This document shows, piece by piece, positions 63 to 59,430 of a DNA stretch of 64,000 nt (positions are counted from its first letter, which is position 1; each line of letters starts with the position of its first letter). The stretch lies in contig JBEKBO010000017.1 of NCBI GenBank assembly GCA_050015355.1, positions 359-64,358 on the forward strand, written 5' to 3'. Made by a program: the position numbers and the translations under genes. The notes under the pieces were generated by a model that worked only from the letters and a program-made list of their open reading frames with translations, did no database searches and was not told where the DNA came from. This stretch comes from Candidatus Korobacteraceae bacterium (GTDB taxonomy: Bacteria > Acidobacteriota > Terriglobia > Terriglobales > Acidobacteriaceae).

Positions 63-788
63 ATGACTCCAGTAGACAACAAATCACTGGTAGTGGTAAG
101 TGCGCACGCCGCCGATTTCATTTGGCGAGCCGGCGGAGCGATTGCGGTTCATACCAAGCGGCACGGTTACCGGGCGGTTGTGGTCTGCCTGAGCGCGGGC
201 GAGCGCGGCGAGTCGAACGAAGTCTGGGCGGCGGAGCCGAACCTCACCATAGAGGACGTGCGGGAGCGCCGCAAGGTTGAGGCCAGGGCGGCGGCGGAAG
301 TGCTCGGAGCCGAGATCCATTTTTTCGATCAGCAGGACTATCTGCTCTCGCCAAGTTCCAGCATCGTCGAGAGGCTCGTCGACATCTATCGGGACGCGCA
401 GCCGCGTTTCATCCTGACGCATCCTCAGGCAGATCCCGCCAACTGGGATCACGTTACGGCTTGCCGTCTGGCGCTGGAGGCGCGCATGGTGGCTCAGGCG
501 CCGGGGCGGAAGGGCGGCAAGATCATTGCCGCGCCTCAGGTGTATTGCTTTGAGCCGCACCAGACCGAACTCTGTCAATACCGCCCGGATACGCTTCTCG
601 ATATCTCGGAGGTCTGGGAACTCAAGTGGCGCGCGATGCTGTGCATCAAGTCGCAGACCAAGATGTGGCCTTATTACAAGAACGTCGCGGAGCAGCGCGG
701 CAACACCGCGCGGCGGCGGACCGAGCGCAAGATCACGCACGCCGAAGCGTACCAACGGATTTTCCCGAGAACCGTCGAGGAACTCTGA
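63..788 (+). CDS. PIG-L/LmbE-family deacetylase
   Basis: 241-aa ORF. VVSAHAADFxxRAGG near the N-terminus and a later THPQADPANWDH resemble the metal-binding signature of PIG-L/LmbE deacetylases. Confidence 0.7.
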   Translation: MTPVDNKSLVVVSAHAADFIWRAGGAIAVHTKRHGYRAVVVCLSAGERGESNEVWAAEPNLTIEDVRERRKVEARAAAEVLGAEIHFFDQQDYLLSPSSSIVERLVDIYRDAQPRFILTHPQADPANWDHVTACRLALEARMVAQAPGRKGGKIIAAPQVYCFEPHQTELCQYRPDTLLDISEVWELKWRAMLCIKSQTKMWPYYKNVAEQRGNTARRRTERKITHAEAYQRIFPRTVEEL

Positions 789-813
789 GCTGGCAAGTCA
801 CGAAGGCGGGAGC

Positions 814-2118
814 ATGGCAGAAAGCAACGAGAAATACGCGGCCACTGTCGCGGAACAACCGAAGAAGGGGAAGCTGGGTTGGTATTCCGAGCTCTCCGGC
901 CGGGAAAGACTGACCTATTGGGCGTGCTTTGGTGGCCTGGGTCTGGATGCGATGGACACGACCATCTACGCCTTGGTCATGCCGACTTTGATCGCCATCG
1001 TAGGCATCACCAAGCCGCAAGCCGGCATAATTGCTTCGGCCGCCTTGATCGGTTCCGCGGTCGGCGGCTGGCTTGCCGGGATCGCGGCGGACCGCATCGG
1101 GCGCGTGCGCGTGCTGCAGATCACCATCCTGCTGGTGGCGGGCTTCACTTTTCTCTCGGCCTTCACGCATTCCTTCTGGCAGCTTTTCCTGGCGCGAAGC
1201 ATCCAGGGAATCGGCTACGGCGGAGAGGCTGCGGTCGGCGGCGTGCTGATCAGCGAGACCGTGGCTCCCCGCCTTCGCGGACGCGTGGCCGCCTCCGTGC
1301 AGAGCGGGTACGCGATTGGTTACGCGCTTTCCACGGCGATGATGCCGATAATCTTCGGATACTTTTCGCAGGCGATGGCATGGCGGGTGTTCTTCGGTAT
1401 CGGTCTGCTTCCAGCGGTGTTCGTGATGTTCATCCGGCGTTTCGTGCCCGAGTCCACTCTCTATGTTGAATCGCACAAGGAGAAGACGAAGACGGCGCGC
1501 AACTTCTGGGAAATCTTCGTGCCTCCGCATCTGAAGAACACGATCACGGCAACCGTGCTCTCAACCGGCATTCTGGGCGGCGCTTACGTAATGATCACCT
1601 GGCTGCCCACTTATCTTCGAACTGTCTTGCACCTCCGCGTTTCCTCCACTGCCGGCTATCTGGCCCTGAATATCCTGGGCTCTTTCGTCGGCCCGTTCGC
1701 CTACGGCTTCCTGAGCGATTGGATTGGCAGGCGCAAGAGCTTCATGATTTTCCTGTGTTGCCAAGCTACCAACGTGGCGATCTACATGTTTGCGCCCATC
1801 AATGCCGCCACCACGATGGTTCTCGGATTCTTCCTCGGCGCGCTCCAAGGAGGTCTTGCCTCGGGCATGCTGCCCTCATTCTCCGAGCTGTTTCCCACTC
1901 GCATTCGCGCCAGCGGACAAGGTTTTTCGCTGAGCGGCGGCCGCGGTTTCGGCGCCGTGGTTCCGGCGATGGTCGGGGTGCTGGCGGCAACCAGGCCGCT
2001 AGGGCAGGCCATGGGAGTGTGCGCCCTCTCGGCGTATGCCGTGGCGCTCGTCGCCGCTTACCTGCTGCGGGAGACAAAAGGGGCTGATTTGCGGGCTGAA
2101 GCAGCAGTCGGCAAGTGA
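814..2118 (+). CDS. MFS transporter
   Basis: The ORF track gives 526..2118, but the likely start is the ATG at 814 (MAESNEKY), 26 nt after the upstream stop. About 12 hydrophobic segments; an ADRIGRVR motif lies between TM2 and TM3, typical of MFS. Confidence 0.85.
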   Translation: MAESNEKYAATVAEQPKKGKLGWYSELSGRERLTYWACFGGLGLDAMDTTIYALVMPTLIAIVGITKPQAGIIASAALIGSAVGGWLAGIAADRIGRVRVLQITILLVAGFTFLSAFTHSFWQLFLARSIQGIGYGGEAAVGGVLISETVAPRLRGRVAASVQSGYAIGYALSTAMMPIIFGYFSQAMAWRVFFGIGLLPAVFVMFIRRFVPESTLYVESHKEKTKTARNFWEIFVPPHLKNTITATVLSTGILGGAYVMITWLPTYLRTVLHLRVSSTAGYLALNILGSFVGPFAYGFLSDWIGRRKSFMIFLCCQATNVAIYMFAPINAATTMVLGFFLGALQGGLASGMLPSFSELFPTRIRASGQGFSLSGGRGFGAVVPAMVGVLAATRPLGQAMGVCALSAYAVALVAAYLLRETKGADLRAEAAVGK

Positions 2119-2172
2119 TCTGCGGTTGCCGAATGAGGGCGGGCACCGATTGTGTACAGGGAATGAGGTGAC

Positions 2173-3204
2173 ATGGCGAAACATCCATTGCGAGTGCTGG
2201 TGACGGGAGCGGAACTGGTTTCCATCGCAGTCGATAAGCTTTCTTCAATCGGCGCGACCTTGACGATGATGCCGGGCAAGATGACCGAGGAACGACTCAT
2301 CGAAGAGCTTGCCAAGCAACCGGTGCAGGCGATCCTGATGCGCGGAAATCCCCCGGTCAGCCAGGCAGTGTTGGACGCCGCGCCCGAGTTGCGCGTGATT
2401 GCAAAGCACGGAGCCGGCGTCGATTCGGTAGATCTGGCTGCCGCAACCGCGCACGGCGTACTCGTGATGATTGCCGGCGACGCCAATGCCCCCGCAGTGG
2501 CGGAGCTCACCCTTGGGTGCATATTGGCGTTGGGGCGCGACCTTGGTTCGCTTAGCGCTCGTGTCAAGTCGGGCCAGTGGGATCGCGGGAGCTATCACGG
2601 CACGGAGCTGCGGGGCCGCACGCTCGGGCTGATCGGCTTTGGCCGGATCGGGCGGCGCGTGGCAGAGCTGGCTCGATGCTTCGGAATGCGTGTCATTGCC
2701 CTGACTTCCACCCCGACACGCGCAACCAAGGCGCGTGTCGGGGACCCCGGGCGCTCGTCGGAGTCGATCGCTCCGGCGCTCGCGGAAAGAGCAGCAAGCT
2801 TCGAAGCGCTCCTCGCCTCCGCTGACATCGTCAGCCTGCATTGCCCGCTTACTGCCGAAACCCGTGGACTGATGAATCGGAGGGCATTTGCCACGATGAA
2901 GCCGGGAGCTTTGTTCATCAACACCGCCCGTGGAGCACTTGTCGACGAGGCGACTCTGGCGGATGCGCTGACCAGCGGACGGTTGGCGGGAGCCGCTCTT
3001 GACACCCTGACCGAGGAGCCTCCCGCGCCGGGCAATCCGTTGCTGTCGGCTCCGAACCTGATTATCACTCCGCATATCGCGGGGCAGACCGGCGCCGCGG
3101 TGGAGCGCATGGGCGTTGCCGCGGCCGAAAATATCGTCGCCGTGCTTACGGGCGGCGCCGTGGATCGGGCCAATGTCGTCAACCACGGTTTGCTGTCGAG
3201 ATGA
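2173..3204 (+). CDS. D-isomer-specific 2-hydroxyacid dehydrogenase family protein (NAD-binding)
   Basis: 343 aa. GLIGFGRIGRRVA Rossmann motif, then SLHCPLT...NTARG...D...ITPHIAG, typical of the PGDH/GyaR-like family. Confidence 0.85.
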   Translation: MAKHPLRVLVTGAELVSIAVDKLSSIGATLTMMPGKMTEERLIEELAKQPVQAILMRGNPPVSQAVLDAAPELRVIAKHGAGVDSVDLAAATAHGVLVMIAGDANAPAVAELTLGCILALGRDLGSLSARVKSGQWDRGSYHGTELRGRTLGLIGFGRIGRRVAELARCFGMRVIALTSTPTRATKARVGDPGRSSESIAPALAERAASFEALLASADIVSLHCPLTAETRGLMNRRAFATMKPGALFINTARGALVDEATLADALTSGRLAGAALDTLTEEPPAPGNPLLSAPNLIITPHIAGQTGAAVERMGVAAAENIVAVLTGGAVDRANVVNHGLLSR

Positions 3205-3321
3205 CGACCCCACGGCCTGTCGCCGCAGCCTCCCACAGCGGGCGTTGGAATCTCCAGGGAAGGCTGCGTTTACGCAGGAAGAAGGGTTTCTTATTTTTGT
3301 GAACAACAAGGATGGTCATCG

Positions 3322-4338
3322 ATGAGTAAAGCGGGTTATTCGTCTGACGGGCGGCTCAATGTCGCGGTTATCGGGTTGGGCTGGTGGGGAAAAACCATTC
3401 TTGGAGATCTGAAGGACAACTCGAAGGTGCGCGTGACGATGGCGGTCGATGCCGTGCCTGCCGCCGGAGAGTGGGCGCAAGCGCAGGGAGTGAAGTTCAC
3501 GACCGACTACGACGCGGTGCTCGCCGATCCCGCCGTGGGTGCGGTAATTCTCTGCACGCCGCACAGCCTGCACGCCCGGCAGATCGTGGCTGCCGCGATG
3601 GCAAAGAAGCATGTCTTCTGCGAAAAGCCGCTGACCCTCACGCGCTGTGACGCCGTGGCCGCGGTCGAGGCTTGCGAGAACAACAACGTGGTCCTCGGGG
3701 TGGGCCATGAGCACCGCTTCAAGCCCGCGATGCAGGAAGTTTTGCGGGCCGTCAGGGCCGGCGAACTCGGGACTATTCAGGTGACCGAAGCGACTTTGAC
3801 GAATCCGATGAGAGCGATTCCTTCTGGCAATTGGCGCCTCGAAGCGCAGGAACGGCCGGGCGGTACATTGTCCGCCTTGGGAATCCATGGGCTGGATCTC
3901 TCCATTGCGGTCAACGGCCCGGCCAAGAGCGTGCTGGCATACACGGAGTCGCTGATCAGCCCCGTTCAAGACACCCTCGGGTTTCTGATCAACTTCAAAA
4001 GCGGCGCCAAGGGAGTCATCACCTCGGTTGTTGGACCGCCGTTTTCGATTCGTTTCGCGGTCTTTGGCAATAAAGGTTGGATGGAGTTGCACGACAAGGC
4101 CCATCCGCAGGCGCCGCAGGGCTGGACCCTGACTAAGTGCAAGCACGGAGCCCAAGCCGAGCGCGTCGAATACCCTGCAATGTCCATGGTTCGTGCCAAT
4201 GTGGAAGCTTTTGCCGACGCGGTGGCAGGGCGTACTCCTTATCCGGTGACGCACGCCGAGATGGTGGCTAACATCGCCGCCTTCGAAGCCATCGGCAAGT
4301 CAGCCGACAGCGGAGCGATCGTCGCGGTTGTCCCGTAA
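3322..4338 (+). CDS. Gfo/Idh/MocA family oxidoreductase
   Basis: 338 aa. N-terminal VAVIGLGWWGK dinucleotide fold and the conserved FCEKPL motif. Confidence 0.85.
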   Translation: MSKAGYSSDGRLNVAVIGLGWWGKTILGDLKDNSKVRVTMAVDAVPAAGEWAQAQGVKFTTDYDAVLADPAVGAVILCTPHSLHARQIVAAAMAKKHVFCEKPLTLTRCDAVAAVEACENNNVVLGVGHEHRFKPAMQEVLRAVRAGELGTIQVTEATLTNPMRAIPSGNWRLEAQERPGGTLSALGIHGLDLSIAVNGPAKSVLAYTESLISPVQDTLGFLINFKSGAKGVITSVVGPPFSIRFAVFGNKGWMELHDKAHPQAPQGWTLTKCKHGAQAERVEYPAMSMVRANVEAFADAVAGRTPYPVTHAEMVANIAAFEAIGKSADSGAIVAVVP

Positions 4339-5635: not shown

Positions 5636-7297
5636 TTAACCTGCCAACGCCTGCTCGGGCTTCAGGCCGGCCGTGCGCATGGTGCAGGTCAGCTTGAGCG
5701 TATACTCCTGCACCGCCTGCTGGGTCTGCCCGGCCATCCAACCGTGCTCCTGAGCAAGATAAGAGCCCACCAGTGGCGCTGCGGCAATTGCCGAATTCCA
5801 ACTGAACCATTGCAGCCCAATCCGCCGCGCCAGGACGTCTTCGATGGAGGCTGCCATTTCGTAACGAATGCTGTAAACGATCTCCGCCTGGATGCTTGGA
5901 GCGCCTGCCACGATGGGCGCCGCCAGATGCCTGTCCGTCCGCGCCAGTTCGAGAACTTCGACCGCATGGGTCCCGAATTTTTCGCTGAGGTGTTGGGCGG
6001 TGTCCGGGGAGATGTGGAATTTCGGAACCAAGGTGTGCCAAAAAGTTGGTCCGTATCCCTCGGCGCCCGTTAAGCGGAAGTGCTGCGTCTTGCACGGTGA
6101 AACGGCACTCTTCAAGTACTGCTGAACCACATTCACCGCATCCTCGGCCATTGCCCGGTACGTGGTCCACTTACCGCCGAGAACGCTGATGAGTCCGCTG
6201 TCTTGATTCACTTCCACCTCGTGATCTCGAATCAACTTCTTGGTATTGCGCGCATCTCCCGGACTGACCAACGGTCTTAGTCCCGCGATACCGCTCATGA
6301 CCTGATCGATGCTAAAAGGCCGTCTCAAATAACGGTTCAGATGCCTGAGCAAGTACTCCACTTCTTCATGTTTCACCGCCAGTTCATCATCCAGTGCCGC
6401 TTCGTCATCGGTCGTTCCAACCAGAAGCCTGCCCTGCCACGGGATTGCAAAGATCACGCGCCCGTCGTCCGTTTGAGGAATGAGCATCGCATCAAGGCGG
6501 AAGGCCGCCTCCAGGGGAAGCAGAATGTGGATTCCCTTGCTCAGCCGAAGCCGCGGGTGAATGCCGGGATTAGCGAGGCTCCGGACCTGGTCCGAGAATG
6601 GACCTGTGGCATTGACAAAAGCTTTGGCACGCACGGTGAAGCGCTCCTCAGACAATTGGTCTTCCACGTGCGCTTCGCATAGCTTGCCATCTTTGGTTTT
6701 CGCAAAACCGGCGACGCGCGAATAATTGAGCGCGGCTCCTCCGTTCTCGACGAAGGTATTGACGAGCGCAATGCCGTACCTGGCGTCATCGAACTGTCCG
6801 TCTGTATATGCGACAGTCCCCACCAGTCCCGAGGTGTTCAGCATCGGCAGGCGAACCGTGGATTCGTGGACTGAGAGAAAACGGCTAGGGGAAAGCATGC
6901 CTTGCCCGGAAATCCAGTCATAGAGCTTCAGTCCGGCTCTAAAATAATACGCATCGCGGTGGCTGAAGCATGGCACAAGGAGTTCCAGCGGACGAGTGAG
7001 AAACGGGGCATTGTTCAACATCAGCTTGCGTTCACGCAGGGCGCGCCTGACGACACGATATTGGCCGAGATCACAATCCGCAACCGACTGTTGCAGGTAT
7101 CTGACGCCGCCATGCACAAGCTTGGTGGAGGCACTGGAGGTTGCCGAAACAAAGTCGGCGGCGTCCAGCAGAACCGTTCGCAACCCGCGAAGTTCCGCGT
7201 CGAGCGCGCACCCCGCTCCCGTCGCCCCGCCACCGATCACGCAGACATCGAATGTCGTGCTCTTGATATTCTCCATTGCCTCGGAGCGGCTTTTCAT
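5636..7297 (-). CDS. glpD: FAD-dependent glycerol-3-phosphate dehydrogenase
   Basis: FDVCVIGGGATGAGCALDAELRG FAD fold plus STKLVHGGVRYL. Start moved to the ATG at 7297 (MKSRSEAMEN), because the longer ORF (to 7396) runs into the repeated leader element. Confidence 0.9.
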   Translation of the reverse strand: MKSRSEAMENIKSTTFDVCVIGGGATGAGCALDAELRGLRTVLLDAADFVSATSSASTKLVHGGVRYLQQSVADCDLGQYRVVRRALRERKLMLNNAPFLTRPLELLVPCFSHRDAYYFRAGLKLYDWISGQGMLSPSRFLSVHESTVRLPMLNTSGLVGTVAYTDGQFDDARYGIALVNTFVENGGAALNYSRVAGFAKTKDGKLCEAHVEDQLSEERFTVRAKAFVNATGPFSDQVRSLANPGIHPRLRLSKGIHILLPLEAAFRLDAMLIPQTDDGRVIFAIPWQGRLLVGTTDDEAALDDELAVKHEEVEYLLRHLNRYLRRPFSIDQVMSGIAGLRPLVSPGDARNTKKLIRDHEVEVNQDSGLISVLGGKWTTYRAMAEDAVNVVQQYLKSAVSPCKTQHFRLTGAEGYGPTFWHTLVPKFHISPDTAQHLSEKFGTHAVEVLELARTDRHLAAPIVAGAPSIQAEIVYSIRYEMAASIEDVLARRIGLQWFSWNSAIAAAPLVGSYLAQEHGWMAGQTQQAVQEYTLKLTCTMRTAGLKPEQALAG

Positions 7298-7353
7298 CCT
7301 TGGGTCCCCTTTTTCGTCGCAAGTGTGGCAAAGCTTCGTTATCGGGACAAAGC

Positions 7354-7437
7354 AAAAGCCGCCCAAGAGAGGCGGCTTGCATGGGTTGAAATCCATACAG
7401 GAGGCTTCTCTTGGGCGGCTTCTCTAGTCTCTGCCGC
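7354..7437 (-). promoter_or_regulatory. glpD leader copy of an 84-nt element containing an intrinsic terminator
   Basis: Reverse complement of 7759..7842 (82/84 identical by my alignment). In the glpD sense it ends AAGCCGCC-TCTCTTG-GGCGGCTT followed by TTGCTTTG, about 55 nt upstream of the glpD ATG. Confidence 0.7.
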
Positions 7438-7758
7438 GATGTGCAAATAAGTCTACCTTCGAACCGGCAGGCGTAGTCTGTGATGCGCATCACCTGCCGG
7501 CATGCGCGAAGCTCATGTCCGTCTTCGCGGTGCTCCGGAGCCAGACCTTATGAGTATCCCTTTCGCGAAACCGTTGTAGCGAACAGCCATGGTGCCGGGC
7601 GTTCGAGTCCCTTTCGTTTCGGACGTAGGCGCCGCGCGCGCCAAATCAAAAGCGTTATGGAACGAGGCGCCGTGTGTTTCGAGGCGCGCACCTCTTACAG
7701 TGTGATGCTGGTCACAGACACATCGGCTATCCGCGAAGTTAAATGACAATTCAAATTT

Positions 7759-7842
7759 GCGGCAGAGATTAGAGAAGCCGCCCAAGAGAAGCCTCCTGTA
7801 TGGATTTCAACCCATGCAAGCCGCCTCTTTTGGGCGGCTTTT
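7759..7842 (+). promoter_or_regulatory. mgtC/glpP-operon leader copy of the same 84-nt element with an intrinsic terminator
   Basis: Ends AAGCCGCC-TCTTTTG-GGCGGCTT followed by TTCATTT, about 65 nt upstream of the mgtC ATG. Contains two AGAGAAGCC direct repeats. Confidence 0.7.
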
Positions 7843-7906
7843 CATTTCCCTCGTTTCAGTGGCCAGGTGAGCGTCTCTACGCCGTTTGCCGGCAGGAGGG
7901 TCGGAC

Positions 7907-8632
7907 ATGGACATCTTCTTGCATTGGTTGGCGCTGGCGGATCAGCCGCAACACGTGCTGACGCAGTCGATCTTCCGCCTCCTGCTGGCAGCGATTCTTG
8001 GCGGCTGCATCGGGTTTCAGCGCGAGCGGCGCGGCAAGGCCGCCGGCCTGCGGACCAACATGCTGATCTGTGTCGGGTCCGCCACTTTTACCATCCTCTC
8101 GTTATCTCTGGCCAGTACTTTTGGCGGCGACCGCACCCGCATCGCCGCGCAGATCATCTCTGGGATTGGGTTTATCGGCGCCGGCTCCATTCTCCGCGAG
8201 AGGGGAAGCATTACCGGGCTTACGACAGCCGCTACGATGTTTGTTGCCGCCGGGGTTGGAATGGCCGCCGGTGGCGGAATGCCCGTTCTCGCAATGTTTA
8301 CAACCGTGCTTGTCTTGCTGGCACTCAGCGTGTTGGGGAGGTTTGAAACTCAGCGGTTGAAGCTCATCCCCGCGCGCTACAGTCTTGTAGGGAATGATAT
8401 CAAGGACATTATCAGTGTCATCAATACAACGCTCTCTGGCGAACACCGTCTGATCAAGGACATTCGATTGTCATCGAAGGATGGGCACTCGCACGCGCTG
8501 CTGCGGGTGGACGCAACCCAGTTAGAACACGAGCAGATCCTGCGCCAGTTGGAAGCGGCGCCGCGGATTACCCAGTGCGAGCTGCGCACGGGGCCGGCTT
8601 TCGGCAAGGATTCGGAGGGCGACTCGTCATAA
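7907..8632 (+). CDS. MgtC/SapB family membrane protein
   Basis: AAILGGCIGFQRERRGKAAGLRTNMLICVGSA is the MgtC N-terminal signature. The ATG at 7907 is preceded by AGGAGGG at a 6-nt spacing. Confidence 0.85.
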   Translation: MDIFLHWLALADQPQHVLTQSIFRLLLAAILGGCIGFQRERRGKAAGLRTNMLICVGSATFTILSLSLASTFGGDRTRIAAQIISGIGFIGAGSILRERGSITGLTTAATMFVAAGVGMAAGGGMPVLAMFTTVLVLLALSVLGRFETQRLKLIPARYSLVGNDIKDIISVINTTLSGEHRLIKDIRLSSKDGHSHALLRVDATQLEHEQILRQLEAAPRITQCELRTGPAFGKDSEGDSS

Positions 8633-8773
8633 TGGGTCGCGTAGGGTGTTGCTCGGACTCACTGCGGATGGCGTGGGTGCTGTTGCCCAGGGAGATACCT
8701 GTTGCGGTTTACGCCGGGCGGGGTATGATCGAGACGCGAAACATCAAGCTACCGGATTGGAGATGCTGGCGCG

Positions 8774-9400
8774 TTGCAGGCCCGCAAGCTGAAGGACCCT
8801 CCCGGGACGTATCCCGCCGGGACAGGTGAAGTGGTGAAGACACTCGAATCTCTTCTGGAACAGAGTCGCATTATCCCGGCGGTGCGCGACCCGGAACTCT
8901 TGTCGAAGGCGACGGCGGCATCGAGTAAGATTATTTATCTGCTGTGTGGAACGCCTGAGAACATTGGCGAAATGGCGGCGCAGGCAAGTGCCTGTGGCAA
9001 AGTGCCAATTGTAAATCTGGACCTTGTCTCCGGCTTTGCGCGCGACGCCGCCGCGATTGAATTCTTGTCGCGTCGTTGCATACGGGGAATTATTTCCACG
9101 CACCAAGTCCCGCTTCGCGCCGCCCGCGGCTTGGGACTTTTCGCCATACAACGCACATTTCTCCTGGATTCGGCCGCGCTGCAAAGTTCCCTGCGTTCCA
9201 TTGAGCAAGCCCGTCCCGATGCCATCGAGGTGTTGCCTGCGATTGTGGCTCCGTATCTTGTGCGCGAGTTGAATCGTGAACACTCCACACTGCCGGTAAT
9301 TGCCGGAGGCTTAGTACAATCACTCCGTCAGATTCAGGATTTGATAGACCAGGGCGTGAACTCGGTTTCCGTCGGGAACCCCGACTACTGGCTAGTGTGA
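8774..9400 (+). CDS. glpP: glycerol-3-phosphate-responsive antiterminator, GlpP family
   Basis: IIPAVRD..., GIISTH and AIQRTFLLDSAAL...PDAIEVLP...PVIAGG align with B. subtilis GlpP as I recall it (ILPAIR..., AIQRLFLLDSSA..., PDYIEVLP..., PIIAGG). The true start is probably a GTG at 8831 or 8834 rather than the TTG at 8774. Confidence 0.8.
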   Translation: MQARKLKDPPGTYPAGTGEVVKTLESLLEQSRIIPAVRDPELLSKATAASSKIIYLLCGTPENIGEMAAQASACGKVPIVNLDLVSGFARDAAAIEFLSRRCIRGIISTHQVPLRAARGLGLFAIQRTFLLDSAALQSSLRSIEQARPDAIEVLPAIVAPYLVRELNREHSTLPVIAGGLVQSLRQIQDLIDQGVNSVSVGNPDYWLV

Positions 9401-9581
9401 AAACCTGCATGTTGCGAACGCATCCGAACGCGCGGTGAAGCCTGTCAAACTACCCGCGCGGCACTGTCGACAAGGTTTTTGGCGCATTTCCCGATCTGCG
9501 CGATATGCTATGTACGACTGTGGGAGGCGGGTATTCGCCTCCTGTATACAGAAAACAATTTTGCATCAGGAGGGACATGGT

Positions 9582-10706
9582 ATGAGACGGTTTGCAGTGA
9601 TTACGGCCCTGATCGTTGGATTTTTTATCTCTATGCCAGCTACCGCGTTTTCTCAGGCCATCGAGAATGAGTTCTATCTCATCACCCCTGTATCCAAGGA
9701 TGTCCATGATCCGATGTTGAAGGCGTTCGCGGCCTATGCAAAGAAGAAATGGAACGTGGACTTGAAGACCAGCGCCATGCCGCAAGGCACGCCGGTCGCC
9801 TATGGCCAGATCGTGGAGTGGAAGGGAAGACCACAGGCGGACGTCTTCTGGGGCGGCGAGGGGATACTTTTTGACAAGCTGGCAAAGCAAGGGCTGCTTG
9901 AAAAACTACAGGTTCCCGACAAGATGTGGCGCGAGATTCCCGCCGGGATCGGCAAGCCTGTGAGCCTACCTCTCAAGGATCCAAAAAAGTTCTGGGTCGG
10001 AACGATGCTGGAACCGTACGGGATTATCTATCAGCCGAAACTTCTCAAGCGTCTCGGCGTGGAGATTAAAGACTGGGATGACCTTCTCAATCCGAAGCTG
10101 AAAGGCCAGATCGCACAATGCACCCCCGACAGATCCAGCAGCAGCCATGCTTCCTATGAAGTCATTCTCCAAACCTATGGCTGGGCAAAGGGCTGGGAGT
10201 GGCTGACGAAGCTTTCGGCGAACACGGGAATTTTTACAGCTCGCTCCCGCGACGTACCGAATGTGGTGTCCAAGGGAGAATTCGCCGTTGGCTTTGCGGT
10301 GCCGAGCTATATGGCCTTTGCCGAGGTCCTGAATGGTTATGACGTTGCATTCGTCTATCCGAAGAATGCCTATGTGACACCCGAACCCATGGCTGTGTTG
10401 AAGGGGGCGCCTCACGTGAAAGCCGCCCATGCCTTCATCGAATTTTTGTTAAGCGAAGAAGGTCAGAAGCTTGTCTCCTCCATGGGAGTCTATCCGATTA
10501 CCGCCAAGTATAAGGTTCAGGGCCCTGCCGGCTCCAATCAGGAAAAGGCCGTGGCTTTCACCGGCGGGATTCGGTCCTTCTTCGATATTCCGGTCGGCAA
10601 TATTTACAACGACAGTGTTGCCGGCGGGCCGAATCGGGACGAAGAAGTGAATGCCTACTTCCGCAAGGAAATCGCGGAGAAGCATAAGGACCTCGTTAAG
10701 AGATAA
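9582..10706 (+). CDS. ABC transporter periplasmic substrate-binding protein (Fbp/PotD-like type)
   Basis: The ATG at 9582 follows AGGAGGGA. Signal peptide MRRFAVITALIVGFFISMPATAFSQA. Adjacent ABC ATPase and permease genes. Confidence 0.85.
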   Translation: MRRFAVITALIVGFFISMPATAFSQAIENEFYLITPVSKDVHDPMLKAFAAYAKKKWNVDLKTSAMPQGTPVAYGQIVEWKGRPQADVFWGGEGILFDKLAKQGLLEKLQVPDKMWREIPAGIGKPVSLPLKDPKKFWVGTMLEPYGIIYQPKLLKRLGVEIKDWDDLLNPKLKGQIAQCTPDRSSSSHASYEVILQTYGWAKGWEWLTKLSANTGIFTARSRDVPNVVSKGEFAVGFAVPSYMAFAEVLNGYDVAFVYPKNAYVTPEPMAVLKGAPHVKAAHAFIEFLLSEEGQKLVSSMGVYPITAKYKVQGPAGSNQEKAVAFTGGIRSFFDIPVGNIYNDSVAGGPNRDEEVNAYFRKEIAEKHKDLVKR

Positions 10707-10710
10707 CTGC

Positions 10711-11799
10711 ATGCACATCCACCTGAAGGATGTCGTAAAGAGATTTGGCGCCCTGGAAGCGGTAAGTCACGTCTCCCTGGAAATCCGGGACGGTGAGCTA
10801 TTTACCCTTCTAGGGCCGTCAGGTTGCGGAAAAACGACAATCCTGCGGCTTATCGGCGGCTTCCACAAGCCCGATGAAGGAGAAGTGTACTTCGGCGACA
10901 AAGAGGTATCGGCCATTCCCACCTACCAGCGAAACATCGGCATGGTCTTCCAGAACTATGCTCTCTGGCCGCACATGACGATCTTCGACAACGTAGCCTA
11001 TGGTTTGAAGATCAAGAAGATACCCAAGAAGGAGATATCCGAAAAGGTAAACCGGGTGCTTTCCACAGTCAACCTGACGGGACTGGAAAAGCGCTATCCC
11101 GGCCAGCTCTCCGGCGGCCAGCAGCAACGCGTTGCGCTGGCCCGTGCCCTGGTCCTCAATCCTGATGTACTGTTGCTTGATGAGCCTCTTTCCAACCTGG
11201 ACGCAAAGATACGCCTGCAGGTGCGTGCCGAGATCAGGAAGCTACAGAAGGAACTGGGGATTACCTCCATCTATGTGACCCATGACCAGGAAGAGGCCCT
11301 GACCATCTCCGATCGCATCGCAGTCATCGAGCGCGGGAAGATTCAACAAATCGGAGCGCCCAGGGACCTCTACGAGCGGCCGCAGAATCCATTCGTGGCC
11401 GATTTTATCGGCATCAACAACCTGATCGCCGGCGAGGTGAAGCAGGTCGATGAGGCGGCCGGATTGATGGTGGTCCACACTCAGTTCGGGTTGATTAAAT
11501 GTTTGCCGGACAAACAGCTTCGGGAGGGGGATGCGTGCAAGATTTCCGTTCGTCCCGAGGTTGCTTCCATCGGTCTGCCCGCTGAAGCGCATAACGGCAT
11601 GAACGCGATTTGCGGAACGGTAAGCTTCGCCTCCTACATCGGCAACGCTATTCGCTACGACATCGAACTGGACCGGGACACCATCTTCAGAGTTGACGTG
11701 CAGAACCCCAGGAACCAGCAACCGTTCCCGATCAATGAAAAGGTAAGCGTTAGTTTCCCCATTCGAGTAACACTTGGGATCCCTGTCTCAAAGGGCTAG
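10711..11799 (+). CDS. ABC transporter ATP-binding protein (PotA/FbpC/MalK type with a C-terminal TOBE-like domain)
   Basis: Walker A GPSGCGKTT, signature LSGGQQQRVALARAL, Walker B LLLDEPLSNLD. The ATG at 10711 lies just after the SBP stop. Confidence 0.9.
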   Translation: MHIHLKDVVKRFGALEAVSHVSLEIRDGELFTLLGPSGCGKTTILRLIGGFHKPDEGEVYFGDKEVSAIPTYQRNIGMVFQNYALWPHMTIFDNVAYGLKIKKIPKKEISEKVNRVLSTVNLTGLEKRYPGQLSGGQQQRVALARALVLNPDVLLLDEPLSNLDAKIRLQVRAEIRKLQKELGITSIYVTHDQEEALTISDRIAVIERGKIQQIGAPRDLYERPQNPFVADFIGINNLIAGEVKQVDEAAGLMVVHTQFGLIKCLPDKQLREGDACKISVRPEVASIGLPAEAHNGMNAICGTVSFASYIGNAIRYDIELDRDTIFRVDVQNPRNQQPFPINEKVSVSFPIRVTLGIPVSKG

Positions 11800-11814
11800 G
11801 CTAGGAGCCGGAGC

Positions 11815-13524
11815 GTGAATACCGAGGCGGCGGTGGCGACGAGATCACGAATCCGGCCCGATGTGCGTGTTGGAGAAATCCTCGGCTATGCCGGCATCTG
11901 GAGCTTCTTCATCATTTTTCTGATCTATCCCCTCACCCGTCTGTTTTACGACAGTTTCACTACCGATGACGGGATCTTCACCCTGGGGAACTATTACCAG
12001 TTTTTCACCGATGGCTTCTATCTGAGATCGTTTTACAACTCCATGGTACTTGGCGTTGCTTGTGTGATCACCACCTCGGTGCTCGGCATCGCCATCGCGT
12101 TTCTGTTGCTCCGTTACGATTTCCCTGGCAGGAGGCTTTTTTCCTATCTCACCATCATCCCCATGATCATGCCGCCCTTGGTTGGCGTCATGGGCTTCAC
12201 CTTCATCCTGGGGCGCGCAGGGACGGTCAATACCATCCTCCAGGACTATCTGGGCTTTGAGCAGCCTATCAACTTCATGTACGGGATTCACGGGGTGCTG
12301 CTGGTCGAGACTTTGCACCTCTTTCCGCTGATGACGTTGAGTATCGTGGACGCGATGTCAAAGATATCGCCCTCACTCGATGAGGCGGCCGAGAGCGTTG
12401 GCTCCCGGGGGATTCGCAAATTTTGGGATATCACTTTTCCCCTGACCACGCCGGGCTATGTCACCGGCGCGCTGCTGGTTTTCATCTGGACCTTTGCCGA
12501 CTTCGCGACGCCGCTCGTGGTCGGGGTGGATGATCTCCTCGCCTCACAGGCCTACCTGAATATTGTCCAGTTCGTCGACCGCAGGCTGTTCAAGATGGGG
12601 ATCGTGATCTCGGCGATCATGGTCATTCTGGCTATCGTTTTTCTCATCGTTGCCAAGAAGTATGTGGCCATCAAGGATTACAGTTCGCTCTCTTATTCGC
12701 AGATTGAGCGGAAGAAGCTATCGGTTTCATCGCAGTTGGGTGTCGTCGCCTTTCTTGTCGGCGTCCTGATCTTCGCCTTTATTCCTTATTTCGGGATCGC
12801 CCTCGATTCGTTCGGAAAGGGCTGGGCATTGACGCCGTTTCCCGTCAAGTACACGCTTCAGTATTTCGAGCGCGTCTCGGTTGAGACGCCCAAGTTCATC
12901 CTCAACAGCCTCCTCTACTCGGGCATTTCCGTAGCGATCTGCATCGCCGTGGGAGTTTCGGCGGCGTGGGTCATGGCGCGGACCAAACTTCCGGGCAGAG
13001 AAATCCTCGATTCGTTGACGACGTTGATCCTGGCCCTGCCCGGGACGGGAATCGGCGTCGCTTATATGCGCGCCTTTCGCGACCCGCTGCCTTTCATGGG
13101 TATTCCCCTCATCGGGATGTGGGTCGTCATCCCCATCGTCCTTGGTGTGCGACGCCTGCCTTACACGGTGCGGGGGACATTTGCCTCTTTGTTGATCGTC
13201 CATCGTTCCTTCGAAGAGGCAGCCGAAAGTGTTGGGGCAGCCAAAGTCAAAACCTTCAAGGATGTGACCCTTCCCCTCATCTGGAAGGGAGTGCTCACTG
13301 GCGCCCTGTATTCCTTCATTCTTGCGCTGCAAGAGGCTTCCGCCACGCTTCTGCTGGTCGTCCCCGGCCATGAAATGATGACCGTGGGGATCTTTAATTT
13401 TTATATCGGCGGGTCGGTGAATGAGGCGGCGGCCCTGGGGCTCATTCTGATCATTCTTGGCGCGGTTTGTCTGCTGATCATAAACCGGCTCGCGGGGTCC
13501 AGGATGGGGGGCGTTTTTGGCTAA
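11815..13524 (+). CDS. ABC transporter permease, fused two-domain type (FbpB/ThiP-like)
   Basis: 569 aa, GTG start, about 12 TM segments. Two EAA-like loops (DEAAESVGSRGIRKFWDITFPL and EEAAESVGAAKVKTFKDVTLPL). Confidence 0.9.
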   Translation: MNTEAAVATRSRIRPDVRVGEILGYAGIWSFFIIFLIYPLTRLFYDSFTTDDGIFTLGNYYQFFTDGFYLRSFYNSMVLGVACVITTSVLGIAIAFLLLRYDFPGRRLFSYLTIIPMIMPPLVGVMGFTFILGRAGTVNTILQDYLGFEQPINFMYGIHGVLLVETLHLFPLMTLSIVDAMSKISPSLDEAAESVGSRGIRKFWDITFPLTTPGYVTGALLVFIWTFADFATPLVVGVDDLLASQAYLNIVQFVDRRLFKMGIVISAIMVILAIVFLIVAKKYVAIKDYSSLSYSQIERKKLSVSSQLGVVAFLVGVLIFAFIPYFGIALDSFGKGWALTPFPVKYTLQYFERVSVETPKFILNSLLYSGISVAICIAVGVSAAWVMARTKLPGREILDSLTTLILALPGTGIGVAYMRAFRDPLPFMGIPLIGMWVVIPIVLGVRRLPYTVRGTFASLLIVHRSFEEAAESVGAAKVKTFKDVTLPLIWKGVLTGALYSFILALQEASATLLLVVPGHEMMTVGIFNFYIGGSVNEAAALGLILIILGAVCLLIINRLAGSRMGGVFG

Positions 13525-13593
13525 AGTACGTTCAGCTACGAGCAGATTGGTCATTACATTGACCAGCATGGCTATGATAAGGCGGCGGGGTGA

Positions 13594-14406
13594 ATGTCGG
13601 CTGAAATGATCGGCAAAATTCGCTGCTTTGTTCTTGATATGGATGGAACTGTATATCTCGGCAGCCGCTTATTGCCGGGCGCTCTCGAGTTTATAGAGTA
13701 TCTTCGCCAAACTCAGCGCGACTTTCTATTTGTAACCAATAACTCTTCCCGTCATGCCGGATACTACGCGAGTAAGTTGACGAAGTTAGGGATTAATTGC
13801 GACGCCGCTAACATACTGACTTCCGGAGAGGCGACAGCCTTCTATATCAACACCCTGAAAAAAGGTGCGCGAATCTTTCTACTGGGCACTCCCGAGTTGG
13901 AAGAGGAATTTCAAAGTCAGGGATTTACGCTGACCGCCGATGCTCCGGATTTTGTGGTGCTGGGCTTCGATAAAACATTGACCTACGGCAAACTGGTGAC
14001 CGCCTGCGATTGGATCCGCCAAGGCGTCCCATTTATCGCCACTCATCCGGATCTGAATTGCCCCACCGAGTCCGGGTACATTCCGGATTGCGGCGCGATG
14101 GCGGCATTGATTTCGGCATCGACGGGCGTACAGCCCAAAGTGATCGGCAAGCCGCATCGTGAAATCATCGACATGATCTTGCGCAAGAAGGCTTACGACG
14201 CAGAGCAACTGGCGATTGTCGGCGACCGCTTGTACACCGATATGGCCACCGGATTCAATGCCCGTATCTGCACGGTTCTGGTTCTCAGCGGAGAGACAAA
14301 GCCCGAAGATCTGCGCGCAGCCTCCATGCAACCGCAGTATGTCTGCCGCGATCTGGCGGACCTGACCGAACGATTAATGCGAAGCGACACCCAGCCACGC
14401 CTGTGA
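13594..14406 (+). CDS. HAD-IIA family phosphatase (NagD-like)
   Basis: LDMDGTVYLG, FVTNNSS and GDRLYTDM motifs. Confidence 0.85.
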   Translation: MSAEMIGKIRCFVLDMDGTVYLGSRLLPGALEFIEYLRQTQRDFLFVTNNSSRHAGYYASKLTKLGINCDAANILTSGEATAFYINTLKKGARIFLLGTPELEEEFQSQGFTLTADAPDFVVLGFDKTLTYGKLVTACDWIRQGVPFIATHPDLNCPTESGYIPDCGAMAALISASTGVQPKVIGKPHREIIDMILRKKAYDAEQLAIVGDRLYTDMATGFNARICTVLVLSGETKPEDLRAASMQPQYVCRDLADLTERLMRSDTQPRL

Positions 14407-24519: not shown

Positions 24520-24671
24520 TGTCATTCTGAGCAAGTACCGCGAGCGAAGTTGAGGCGTTGAGGCGGCGTCTGAGCCGCCTGCCGAAATCCTGAGCGGAGC
24601 GAAGGAACTCGGAAGCCGGGAGCGGCGCGGGGTGAAAGTCTCCTGGGATCCTTCGCTTCGCTCAGGATGAC
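24520..24671. repeat. MITE-like palindromic element, GTCATYCTGAGCG-termini family (copy C)
   Basis: GTCATTCTGAGCAAG...CGCTTCGCTCAGGATGAC. Contains the roughly 60-nt module GAAGTTGAGGCGTTGAGGCGGCGTCTGAGCCGCCTGCCGAAATCCTGAGCG, also found at 57397-57458 (inverted) and 59299-59359. Confidence 0.8.
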
Positions 24672-27508: not shown

Positions 27509-27629
27509 ATCTTCTCCGCAAACTCGGTCAGGCGGGATTTCCGTAAGGGCGGCTTCCTTAGACCTCGTCTCGGTCGCCGGAGATGCTCGTCGGCTCTCCC
27601 ATCGAAGCCGAACTGGCCATGGACACGTA

Positions 27630-27785
27630 TCTGGCCGGTCTCCTGACTTGCGCGTCGGCGGTGCGAACCACCTTCCCAGAGAACAGCTACTCCAGTGGCT
27701 TTAATTGTTCGCACCTCAGCGCTCACAGTTGCGGGGCAGTGGCGGCATCTCACCGCGCTTCCCTTTGCCAGATGCGCTGTTATAG
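27630..27785 (-). ncRNA. cobalamin (B12) riboswitch
   Basis: Minus strand reads ...GGCAAAGGGAAGCGCGGTGAGATGCCGCCACTGCCCCGCAACTGTGAGC...AAAGCCACTGGAG...GGGAAGGTGG...AGTCAGGAGACCGGCC. It contains the GGGAA/GGTGAGA core, GCCACTG, and a B12 box (AGTCAGGAGACCGGCC), about 120 nt upstream of the SBP gene start. Confidence 0.85.
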
Positions 27786-27939
27786 CTCCAATCATGCGGA
27801 GGTGTCAATCAGAACCGCAAGGGCCGTGATGCGCGAATCGCCTGCCCGGTTTCGACATGCCGGGGGATTCGATCCGTTCATGAAAGCGAGAGGCCAAGCG
27901 CGATGCCTGGCCTCTTGAGTCTTGGAACTGGACGCGGGA

Positions 27940-57279: not shown

Positions 57280-57481
57280 GTCATGTTGAGCGCAGCGAAA
57301 CATCCCCGGGAAACTGTCCCACTCCGCGCCGCTCTGGGCTCTTTGATAAATTCCTTCGGCTGTGCCTCAGCTCACGCCGCGCTGGGATTTCGGGTTCCTT
57401 CGCTTCGCTCAGGATTTCGGCAGGCGGCTCAGACGCCGCCTCAACGCCTCAACTTCGCTCCCTCTGGTCGCTCAGAATGAC
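57280..57481. repeat. MITE-like palindromic element, composite copy D (copy-B-type backbone with a nested 60-nt module)
   Basis: GTCATGTTGAGCGCAGCGAAAC...GGTCGCTCAGAATGAC. Positions about 57397-57458 are the reverse complement of the module at 24545-24606. Confidence 0.8.
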
Positions 57482-58631: not shown

Positions 58632-59315
58632 GTGGAACGCCAGATGAAAGAGATGAGAGCCCTTGCCCGCAAACCTGCTGCTATAATACTTTGCCTGCTG
58701 CTCTTGGCCGCGGCCAGCTTCGCCGCATCCGACGGGCGCTCGCTCGATCGCGGCACCAATGAACTTGGCTTCTGGGCCGGGTATTCGCCAAACAATCCGA
58801 CGTTGATCGGCATCACCACCGACCGCCCTTTTTTCGAGCTGAATTTTCAGTATGCGCGGGTGCTTGTCGCCCGCGACAACTGGGCCCTGAAGTATATGGT
58901 CGAGATGGTTCCGGTGGCCGTCATAAGCCAGCCGCGGCAGGTCAATGTGGTGCAGGGAAATCTGGTGGTGCAGGTCGACGCCGCCGGCACCAAGCGTGCC
59001 ATTTACGGAGGAGGCGCTTCTCCCATAGGGTTACAGGTGAACTTCCGCCGCCATCGCATGTTTCAGCCCTACATCAACGGGACGGCGGGCGTCCTGTATT
59101 TCGCCGAGCAGGTTCCGGTGAGCGGATCGTCGCAGTTTAACTTCGGGGTCGGCTGGGGAGCGGGCGTGCAGATCTGGCATCGGGAGAACCAGTCCGTCAG
59201 TATTGGCTACAAATTCCACCATATTTCCAACGCCAACTCGGCCGACAGAAACCCGGGCGCAGACTCCAACCTGCTCTACGCGGGCTATAGTTGGAGTTGG
59301 AAGTTGAGGCGTTGA
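58632..59315 (+). CDS. PagL-like acyloxyacyl hydrolase / lipid A deacylase outer-membrane beta-barrel
   Basis: Signal peptide, with GYKFHHISNA (His-x-Ser-Asn) near the C-terminus as in the PagL family. Alternative ATG starts at 58644 and 58653. Confidence 0.65.
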   Translation: MERQMKEMRALARKPAAIILCLLLLAAASFAASDGRSLDRGTNELGFWAGYSPNNPTLIGITTDRPFFELNFQYARVLVARDNWALKYMVEMVPVAVISQPRQVNVVQGNLVVQVDAAGTKRAIYGGGASPIGLQVNFRRHRMFQPYINGTAGVLYFAEQVPVSGSSQFNFGVGWGAGVQIWHRENQSVSIGYKFHHISNANSADRNPGADSNLLYAGYSWSWKLRR

Positions 59316-59430
59316 GGCGGCGTCTGAGCCGCCTGCCGAAATCCTGAGCGAAGCGAAGGACCTCGCCTCCCAGCACAGCAGGAGGTTTCGCCTTGGTGGC
59401 CCACATTTGCCTGCTGTTGGCTAATGTGGG
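59299..59430. repeat. partial repeat cluster (60-nt module plus a variant hairpin module)
   Basis: 59299-59359 matches 24545-24606. 59394-59428 is a CCCACATTTGCC-TGCTGTT-GGCTAATGTGGGG hairpin related to the one at 51046-51083. Confidence 0.7.

Follow-up and report, generated by a model that had tools for sequence, protein, structure and literature searches.

An inverted pair of terminator leaders facing glpD and mgtC in a Korobacteraceae genome is a probable target of the antiterminator GlpP

The glycerol locus analysed here is part of a stretch of 64,000 nucleotides (nt) from a Candidatus Korobacteraceae bacterium of the phylum Acidobacteriota (GenBank assembly GCA_050015355.1, contig JBEKBO010000017.1), which is called the window in the following. 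On the reverse strand the window carries glpD (5636-7297), which codes for an FAD-dependent glycerol-3-phosphate dehydrogenase with the Pfam domains DAO and DAO_C. The score of 323 bits with the NCBIfam models of glycerol-3-phosphate dehydrogenase was below the cut-off. An identical 553-aa glpD call was present on 24 metagenome contigs from peat and soil, and these independent calls agree with the genes of the window. On the forward strand follow the gene of an MgtC/SapB-family membrane protein (7907-8632; Pfam MgtC with 2e-36, and NCBIfam), here termed mgtC, and glpP (8831-9400, with an alternative TTG start at 8774). The glpP product belongs to the family PF04309, G3P_antiterm (Pfam E = 4e-47), and matches the structure of Listeria GlpP, PDB 3KTS, with 2.6e-22. 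Its closest named homologues are from Candidatus Korobacteraceae and Bryocella and are annotated as glycerol-3-phosphate-responsive antiterminators. Together with the peat and soil contigs they place the organism among uncultured Terriglobia. Downstream of glpP, genes for a substrate-binding protein (SBP), an ABC ATPase, a fused permease and a haloacid dehalogenase-like (HAD) protein were identified with Pfam. Between glpD and mgtC lies an inverted repeat. The subject of this work is the view that its arms serve as 5' leaders, the left one in the glpD mRNA and the right one in that of mgtC, and that each contains an intrinsic terminator which is conditional in the manner of GlpP targets; to this view we assign a probability of roughly 0.78.

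A repeat search gave arms at 7349-7437 and 7759-7847, 89 nt each, with 96% complementarity and a spacing of 321 nt. A first-pass annotation of the same sequence had described the arms as reverse-complementary segments of 84 nt with 82 matches that face glpD and mgtC. Repeat search and gene calls confirmed this, and the other two mismatches are within the outer 5 nt. The left copy runs on the reverse strand from GCGGC (7437-7433) to a U-tract (7357-7349), the right copy on the forward strand from GCGGC (7759-7763) to a U-tract (7839-7847). The distance from the end of the U-tract to the ATG is 52 nt for glpD and 60 nt for mgtC. A 51-nt core of the arm occurs exactly twice in the window compared with 0 expected occurrences (100 shuffles), and each arm alone is a near-palindrome of about 70 nt (I2 on the right and I3 on the left). 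The inverted repeat stops exactly at GCGGC; the sequences further inward differ between the copies.

For comparison, genomes were scanned with a GlpP alignment, one genome per species, which yielded 50 loci (designated by L-numbers), and a covariance model, R1, was built from 22 copies of the element. In the window R1 matched the left copy with 112 bits (7336-7445, reverse strand) and the right copy with 105 bits (7751-7860, forward strand). A covariance-model search of relatives had been suggested in the first-pass annotation, and it found the element before glycerol genes and together with glpP: R1 matched the sense strand in almost all of the 50 loci, directly after glpP or in front of glpD. 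The matches were in Acidobacteriota, in one metagenome-assembled genome of Verrucomicrobiia (58 bits) and in three of four loci from Rhodospirillales/Alphaproteobacteria (L058-L060, 23-28 bits). In Korobacteraceae the element is located upstream of glpD, and orthologous copies in this position were present in L011, L012 and L015-L024. L011, the GlpP of which is 91% identical to that of the window, has divergent glpD and glpP genes with no mgtC between them and a single copy upstream of glpD. L012 (GlpP identity of 76%) also has a single copy upstream of glpD, there in front of an operon glpD-mgtC(DUF4010)-...-glpP. Both loci have a hairpin apex different from that of the window and retain the 5' flank, the stem base and the T-tract. 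In most Acidobacteriaceae/Terriglobia the element follows glpP with approximately 60-130 nt from the stop codon to GCGGC, and the gene after it usually codes for an OprB-family porin, followed by glpK. In about 1.07 Mb of loci only further leaders of glycerol genes were found beyond the main copies (L029 at 16059, L033, L035, and L036 at 463). These extra copies precede the gene of a glpA-like dehydrogenase (L029) or further porin genes.

Because the 50 genome loci had been collected around glpP, a context-free scan was run, in which an exact degenerate pattern of the 5' motif was compared with 241 million metagenome records. It returned 84 stretches, 33 of which were true elements according to the covariance model; the others, many of them from gut metagenomes, were chance matches without the hairpin. 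glpP is located upstream of 28 of the 33 copies, in 27 cases at a distance of about 60-150 nt and in one (L125) of about 1 kb. Downstream of the 28 are oprB-glpK, glpK or a glpA-like gene. One copy without glpP in reach (L088, 1646-1755, forward strand) precedes a gene with a Dak1 domain (dihydroxyacetone kinase, dhaK; 1813-2868) and has a DJ-1/PfpI gene upstream; it extends the predicted regulon to the dihydroxyacetone branch. The orientation of the element always agrees with that of the downstream gene. A scan of the region with Rfam, including an E-value threshold, yielded only generic miRNA-hairpin models far below the cut-off, and no Rfam family covers the acidobacterial leaders or the glpD leaders of Firmicutes.

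This distribution bears on the question of whether the 499-bp unit is a miniature inverted-repeat transposable element (MITE) with 89-nt terminal inverted repeats, or whether its arms belong to a dispersed family like the repetitive extragenic palindromes (REP). Like such repeats, the unit has long, near-perfect inverted repeats around a short non-coding centre, its arms form hairpins and it is intergenic; moreover, a genuine dispersed repeat does exist elsewhere in the window with three copies. Yet the element is not dispersed. There are only two copies in the window, and all others, in the 1.07 Mb of loci as well as in the metagenome scan, are in leaders of glycerol genes; as far as the window, these loci and the scan reach, this largely answers the concern of the first-pass annotation that the sequence may recur at many unrelated places. 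In contrast to MITE and REP sequences it has a fixed orientation to the downstream gene and is positionally conserved across species: L011, L012, L015, L018, L019 and L021-L024 each have one copy, in the same position before glpD. As L011, L018, L019 and L021 keep the first copy, the difference between presence and absence consists of mgtC plus one leader and not of the 499-bp unit. Furthermore, the outer ends (CGGGAC on the left and CCCTCG on the right) do not show a direct target-site duplication, the centre holds two conserved promoter-like blocks that point outward, and a plasmid collection contained no match in megablast with the locus or blastn with one arm. A mobile or REP-like origin is thus exceedingly improbable. 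The dispersed repeat mentioned above comprises at least 52 nt (…TCGCTCAGGATTTCGGCAGGCGGCTCAGACGCCGCCTCAACGCCTCAACTTC) and is located at 24546-24597 (reverse), 57405-57456 (forward) and 59300-59351 (reverse), i.e. at places that have no relation to each other. It includes the GC-rich hairpin GGCGGCTCAGACGCCGCC and may represent a REP/MITE-like family of this genome.

In minimum free energy folds of the sense RNA each arm forms one long hairpin, which is followed by UUUUC or UUUUG; the z-scores versus shuffled sequence were -4.6 and -4.9 for the two arms. Hairpin and U-tract occupy 7772-7847 in the right copy (forward), with GCCGCCCAAGAGA as the base of the 5' arm (7777-7789), UCUUUUGGGCGGC as the 3' arm (7826-7838) and UUUUCAUUU as the tail (7839-7847). 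In the left copy they occupy 7349-7424 (reverse) with the U-tract UUUUGCUUU at 7357-7349. In both copies near-palindrome, minimum free energy fold and covariation of the stem define the feature. Flank, loop, both arms and tail of 78 distinct copies were aligned without gaps, which gave the consensus (C)GCGGC - AGAGA - N3-7 - AGAGA(A/G) - GCCG(C/U)CC(A/G)A ... variable apex ... U(U/C)GG(G/A)CGGC - UUUU. Of the cells of the terminator stem 95.4% were paired, and compensatory changes occurred in 11 of 16 pairs; the arm pairs GCCGCCCAA/UUGGGCGGC, GCCGUCCGAAG/CUUCGGACGGC, GCCAUCUAUUGGGA/UCCCAAUAGAUGGC and ACCGCCCAAGA/UCUUGGGCGGU are examples. None of 500 shuffles reached any of five covariation measures, and as a control, sliding the partner by 1-3 columns lowered the pairing of the stem to 39-58%. 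A U-tract follows the stem in more than 90% of the sequences, with T conserved to at least 90% in the post-stem columns. The covariation of the stem and the U-tract demonstrate that the long hairpin is a real RNA structure, i.e. an intrinsic terminator.

The first-pass annotation had seen the terminator of the leader in a shorter hairpin, AAGCCGCC-N7-GGCGGCTT, plus a T-tract. A terminator is indeed present, and so is the short local hairpin, which a terminator scan reported as AAGCCGCC-N7-GGCGGCUU at 7818-7840 (forward; mirror at 7356-7378, reverse). But it uses the 3' arm of the long hairpin and is without a counterpart in L011, L012, L015, L019, L021 and L022. Because the inner AAGCCGCC is not kept even in close relatives, where it is replaced by AAGGCGC (L011), AAGTGGCC (L015), AAGCTACT (L019) or AAGACACC (L021), we regard the short 3' hairpin as lineage-specific and as standing outside the conserved mechanism. 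As had been described, AGAGAAGCC occurs as a direct repeat at 7771-7779 and 7785-7793, and AAGCCGCCCAA is complementary to TTGGGCGGCTT. The pairing of the latter two had been taken for a competitor of the terminator, whereas the distal AAGCCGCCCAA with TTGGGCGGCTT forms the conserved terminator itself.

A different competitor is suggested by the conserved 5' flank. In the right copy a candidate antiterminator hairpin, predicted to bind GlpP, occupies 7759-7781 (forward). Here GCGGC (7759-7763) pairs with GCCGC (7777-7781) around a loop of AGAGA (7764-7768), UU and AGAGAA (7771-7776). In the left copy the corresponding hairpin at 7415-7437 (reverse) consists of GCGGC (7437-7433), AGAGA (7432-7428), CU, AGAGAA (7425-7420) and GCCGC (7419-7415). 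The loop of the 5-bp helix (GCGGC/GCCGC) thus presents both AGAGA boxes. Folded alone, as in nascent RNA in which the 3' arm is still missing, the helix was the predicted structure, with an energy of -8.0 (right) and -8.3 kcal/mol (left) and about 98% of the ensemble. In the alignment, pairing between columns 9-13 and 31-35 is kept in virtually all 78 sequences. The pairs were GC (39), GU (26) and AU (7) at 9/35, CG (75), UG (2) and UA (1) at 10/34, and CG (69), UG (5) and UA (4) at 13/31. With cell-based measures 0 of 500 shuffles reached the observed value. Since the 3' strand of the helix is also the base of the 5' arm of the terminator, helix and terminator are mutually exclusive. That this particular helix with the AGAGA boxes in its loop is the antiterminator appears slightly better than an even bet.

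To our knowledge, antitermination by GlpP has been studied only in Bacillus subtilis. In this organism GlpP and glycerol-3-phosphate relieve termination in the leaders of glpD, glpFK and glpTQ (PMC9604022, PMC10573289), and reviews state that glycerol-3-phosphate-bound GlpP binds an antiterminator and stabilises the mRNA (PMC7430163). The 5' untranslated region (UTR) of B. subtilis glpD confers GlpP- and glycerol-dependent expression on foreign promoters, and deletion of glpP abolishes induction (PMC9604022). The sequence of this 5'UTR (Table S4 of PMC9604022: AGUUAAUAAGAACGGUCCUGAGAUGAGGAGAGACCACAGCACCAAAGUG...CACUUUGGCUGUUGUGGUCUCUUUUUC) has the layout ACGGUC-CUGAGAUGAGGAGA-GACCACAGC...GUGGUCUCUUUUU. 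A GGUC/GACC helix (ACGGUC-CUGAGAUGAGGAGA-GACC) closes a loop with the purine boxes UGAGA and GAGGAGA, and the 3' strand of the helix together with the second box forms the base of the long terminator, by inspection the layout of the acidobacterial element. Common to both systems are a PF04309 gene near the target, a leader directly after the promoter (predicted in our case) and before glycerol-catabolic genes, and a long GC-rich terminator with a U-tract. By inspection they also share two (U/A)GAG(G)A boxes that are placed immediately 5' of the base of the 5' arm and overlap it, and a short closing helix, ACGGUC...GACC in B. subtilis and GCGGC...GCCGC here. The systems differ in the host phyla, which here are Acidobacteriota, Verrucomicrobiia and Alphaproteobacteria, and in the regulated genes, which here include those for an OprB-family porin, a glpA-like protein, dhaK and an MgtC-family protein. 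In addition, the leader is duplicated in inverted orientation in the window, and the leaders of Firmicutes contain an extra conserved segment, AAGUUAAUA, that is absent here.

Three further glpD leaders of Bacillaceae next to glpP were reached through the Listeria GlpP structure 3KTS. Their 5' parts read GUC-AGGAGA-UA-AGGAGA-GACC (L150), GAUC-UGAGGA-UU-UGAGG-GAUC (L152) and ACGGU-UAGAGA-AUC-GAGAGA-CC (L153). When aligned by eye, all three have tandem purine boxes that abut the terminator, and the sequence of the helix changes with complementarity kept. The string ACGGUUAGAGA of L153 is identical to that of the acidobacterial L053. Because the alignment was done by eye and the acidobacterial covariance model does not score the leaders of Firmicutes, we would claim the same architecture for both groups, and not proven homology.

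If the conditional terminator were read by a factor other than GlpP, this could be a small-molecule riboswitch for glycerol-3-phosphate or glycerol, or another RNA-binding protein. Small as the conserved 5' part is, it is not below the size of the smallest known aptamers, and the missing Rfam match could be that of an undescribed riboswitch class. Yet the predominance of glpP next to the context-free copies (28 of 33) argues for GlpP as the reader. Likewise, what is conserved amounts to a plain hairpin whose open loop exposes purine boxes, as sites for proteins typically do, and the same layout is found in the B. subtilis glpD leader with its dependence on glpP (PMC9604022). We thus consider a different reader unlikely.

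The predicted GlpP switch is reminiscent of other antitermination systems. In the RAT-terminator pairs of the BglG/SacY/LicT family, RAT being the ribonucleic antiterminator, a short protein-stabilised 5' hairpin also shares nucleotides with the 5' arm of the terminator, and the two structures are mutually exclusive. However, these proteins consist of a co-antiterminator (CAT) domain and regulation domains (PRDs) controlled by the phosphotransferase system, unlike the TIM-barrel-like PF04309, and sequence and structure of the RAT differ. No CAT-PRD antiterminator protein was found among the neighbouring genes, and the resemblance is in logic only. With HutP and TRAP the element shares short purine-rich repeats in or near a terminator, here CAG, GAG, UAG, GAG and AAG within GCAGAGACUAGAGAAG. 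HutP likewise destabilises a terminator (PMC2425495, PMC7430163). Different from HutP and TRAP are the protein and the presence of only two boxes, which are placed in a hairpin loop.

Upstream of each copy the centre of the inverted repeat contains a promoter-like block. The block of the mgtC leader (7701-7750, forward) comprises the palindrome TGTGATGCTGGTCACA (7701-7716), the box TCACAGACA (7712-7720) with a -35-like CAGACA, and a -10-like TTAAAT (7739-7744). That of the glpD leader (7446-7494, reverse) comprises the palindrome GGTGATGCGCATCACA (7494-7479), the box TCACAGACT (7483-7475) and a -10-like TAGACT (7455-7450). The block of either side is conserved in all four species that carry both copies (window, L016, L017 and L020). 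The palindromes resemble TGTGA-N6-TCACA, and their centres are 49 and 50 nt upstream of GCGGC in the two copies. Of 83 elements, 49 have TCAC[AT]GAC at a distance of 37-48 nt upstream of GCGGC, versus a background of 0.003 per 70 nt, and 72 have a TAnnnT hexamer 6-22 nt upstream. These promoter-like sites were not flagged by a simple promoter consensus scan of the window. We infer a sigma-70-type promoter with a -35 region that overlaps a regulator site and with a start a few nt before the motif. This would place the start in the 321-bp centre, as the first-pass annotation had supposed; a promoter-like block does precede both copies there, and the start itself is predicted from it. The CRP/FNR-like palindromes point to a second regulator of the same promoters that acts at the DNA level, possibly in catabolite control.

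Could the 5' flank and the AGAGA repeats then be a DNA operator for a transcription factor, with the hairpin as an ordinary attenuator, an RNA-stability element or an insulator? The boxes form a direct repeat no more than about 25 nt from the predicted start, and a second conserved DNA element, the TGTGA-N6-TCACA-like palindrome, is situated just upstream. An operator would leave unexplained, though, that five positions flanking the boxes keep their complementarity through two-sided changes, which is relevant only to RNA, and that the stem covaries strongly. In addition, the only regulator gene that is consistently adjacent is glpP, a homologue of an RNA-binding antiterminator. Taken together the operator appears quite improbable.

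A further promoter-like site, TTGCGG-16 nt-TATGAT, was read from the sequence of the mgtC-glpP spacer (8702-8729, forward), and a matching block, TTGCGA-16-TATGAT, is located upstream of glpP in L011. Because the glpP upstream region with the promoter-like site is common to L011, which has no mgtC, glpP probably has a promoter of its own, and the right-hand leader would control mgtC at least. The mgtC-glpP operon of the first-pass annotation is thus doubtful; L011, without mgtC and the second copy, keeps the same region upstream of glpP.

mgtC together with the second, inverted copy was present only in the window, L016, L017 and L020, and not in L011, L015, L018, L019 and L021. The identity of the apical parts of the two copies within one genome was 97% in the window, 97% in L016 and 98% in L020, with L017 as an exception (81%), while it was 63-92% between copies of different genomes. 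The two copies of L020 share an insertion that is found nowhere else. The homogenised tract coincides with the functional element, from GCGGC to a few nt past the U-tract. Because the apical identity within genomes (97-98%) exceeds that between genomes (63-92%), the sequences indicate concerted evolution of the pair, for which gene conversion between the inverted copies is the simplest explanation. The second copy would have arisen when mgtC came under the same control in this sub-lineage. An invertible promoter switch, in which the 321-bp centre inverts, was rejected, as the orientation was the same in 10 independent metagenome assemblies and in 3 related species. That the window's mgtC stems from the L012 operon glpD-mgtC was rejected as well, since its product has hardly any similarity to the MgtC protein of L012 (E = 0.04).

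Divergent leaders with strong hairpins may also act without a ligand switch, i.e. the hairpins may be constitutive, either as 5' stabilisers of the mRNA or as bidirectional terminators that insulate divergent promoters from each other. The glpD leader hairpin of B. subtilis is reported to stabilise the read-through mRNA as well (Glatz et al. 1996, in the account given by PMC7430163). The acidobacterial hairpin is nearly palindromic and therefore folds on both strands; accordingly, R1 also gave reverse-strand matches at the hairpins. On the other hand, a strong terminator with a U-tract between promoter and gene would keep the gene silent as long as nothing relieves it, a plain stabiliser would not need a conserved asymmetric 5' flank with boxes, and the orientation is constantly in agreement with that of the downstream gene. 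Purely constitutive hairpins are thus quite improbable.

Concerning mRNA stability we observed that the 5' flank is also able to pair with a segment just past the U-tract. The pairing is ACGGU/ACCGU in the B. subtilis glpD 5'UTR, GCGGCAGAGAU/GUCUCUACGCCGU in the mgtC copy (7759-7769 with about 7873-7885) and UUCGGC/GCCGAA or GUGGC/GCCAC in other copies (Acidobacteriaceae tails). This outer helix would form in read-through transcripts only and might be related to the reported mRNA-stabilising role of the leader.

From these data the following mechanism is proposed for the GlpP-type switch. Transcription would start a few nt upstream of GCGGC from a promoter with the conserved TCACAGAC(A) box. 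By default the long GC-rich hairpin (GCCGCCCAAGAGA...UCUYUUGGGCGGC) and UUUU would halt the polymerase about 55-60 nt before the start codon. In the presence of glycerol-3-phosphate, GlpP would bind the 5' hairpin GCGGC-[AGAGA-YU-AGAGAA]-GCCGC. This hairpin would take the first five nt of the 5' arm of the terminator and the second purine box, which otherwise pairs with the U-tract. Upon closure of the 5' hairpin the GCGGC-UUUU on the 3' side would remain unpaired, and the terminator would lose its five basal pairs plus the pairs between A and U-tract. The remaining upper stem would no longer abut the U-tract, and the polymerase would read through. The start of transcription, the binding of GlpP, the dependence on glycerol-3-phosphate and the read-through are what we infer; the module is most likely the RNA target of GlpP. 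In this respect the first-pass annotation, which had proposed the leader with its terminator as a candidate target of GlpP, is supported by the confinement of the element to glycerol genes and glpP, by the covariation of the stem and by the layout of the B. subtilis leader, but it was mistaken in the structural detail.

Several points weigh against a GlpP switch of this kind. The linkage to glpP in the genome loci is biased, since these were gathered around glpP. Only the metagenome scan was free of context, and its pattern was derived from glpP-linked copies. With regard to the 5-bp helix, the pair-count and pair-type measures were not above those of shuffled sequences (112/500 and 95/500), its covariation stems from few lineages, and two central pairs of the five are invariant. 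The likeness across phyla is one of layout only, aligned by eye with the model in mind, and R1 with filters off reached at most 7.4 bits on glp loci of Firmicutes (the true glpD leader of L150). Finally, in the copies of the window, sequestration of the long stem's base could still allow the inner AAGCCGCC to form the short terminator with the 3' arm, so that antitermination would be weakened unless the upper stem wins.

The first-pass annotation had also noted that an 11-mer of the leader recurs in the glpP-SBP spacer. The 11-mer, GCCTCCTGTAT, is indeed found at 7395-7405 (reverse), 7791-7801 (forward) and 9537-9547 (forward), the last of which is in the spacer. In the leaders, however, it is part of the hairpin apex, which is unconserved beyond close relatives, and it does not co-vary with the spacer in relatives; L021 has GCCTCCTGCAT in the leader and GCCTCCTGTAG in the spacer. 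As a second GlpP site the 11-mer was rejected, as the spacer is without AGAGA boxes, a U-tract or a match of the covariance model. The spacer has a conserved hairpin of its own, GGAGGC(G)-N6-8-(C)GCCUCC, about 30 nt before the start of the SBP gene (window 9523-9547 and 9568-9575; L011 about 6835-6853; L012 about 6688-6707; L021 about 10660-10680). Because it lacks AGAGA boxes and a U-tract, we do not take it for a copy of the leader. Its 3' side and flank (GCCUCCUG) are complementary to the Shine-Dalgarno region of the SBP gene (CAGGAGG), and for this reason it could be an anti-Shine-Dalgarno/anti-anti-Shine-Dalgarno arrangement. RNA thermometers that sequester the Shine-Dalgarno sequence are known from the glpF and glpT leaders of B. 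subtilis (PMC10573289).

Some further observations concern the surroundings of the leaders. The genes after glpP (9582-14406) code for a PhnS2/T2/U2-like ABC transporter, all components of which were below the NCBIfam cut-offs, and a HAD-IIA phosphatase. In L011 glpD is followed by eutB/eutC (ethanolamine ammonia-lyase) and a gene of the major facilitator superfamily (322-3867). The neighbours in L011 and in the window hint at glycerophosphodiesters, e.g. glycerophosphoethanolamine, as the substrate rather than free glycerol. The 12-mer GCGGCTTTTCAT (repeat family D5) occurs at 7286-7297 and at 7834-7845, i.e. the first four codons of glpD (ATG AAA AGC CGC, reverse strand) are the reverse complement of the end of the 3' arm plus U-tract in the right copy. 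This coincidence is probably due to chance. The sole Rfam match of the window above the gathering threshold was a cobalamin riboswitch aptamer, RF00174, at 27616-27787 (reverse) with 92 bits and E = 1.6e-21.

In a wider sense GlpP proteins of the family PF04309 may generally recognise the 30-nt hairpin, in which a short GC helix closes a loop with two (A/U)GAG(G)A boxes and shares its 3' strand with the base of the terminator. It would be common to Firmicutes, Acidobacteriota, Verrucomicrobia and Alphaproteobacteria and define an uncatalogued cis-regulatory RNA family with a wider regulon; in the lineage of the window the module would have been copied to a second promoter and the two inverted copies kept identical by gene conversion. 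We give this extended view an even chance. The kind of switch is already known; new would be a GlpP-type switch in new phyla with a usable consensus. In the literature that we reached, the RNA recognition element of GlpP is undefined, and it is not covered by an Rfam family; with about 80 distinct copies, which come from three or more further phyla, a consensus and a specific structural model are now available. With its length of about 90 nt the module is compact as well as portable; since its Bacillus version already serves as a glycerol-inducible part, orthogonal variants might find use as tools. As for the inverted pair, it offers a clean case from nature of a regulatory RNA that evolves in concert.

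Acidobacteria are abundant, poorly studied soil bacteria. For them the data predict a glycerol regulon of OprB porin, glpK, glpD or glpA, dhaK and an MgtC-family protein. In the extended view given above, the regulon in bacteria of the Gram-negative type would not be limited to glpD and glpK but would also take in OprB porins of the outer membrane, dhaK and an MgtC-family protein.

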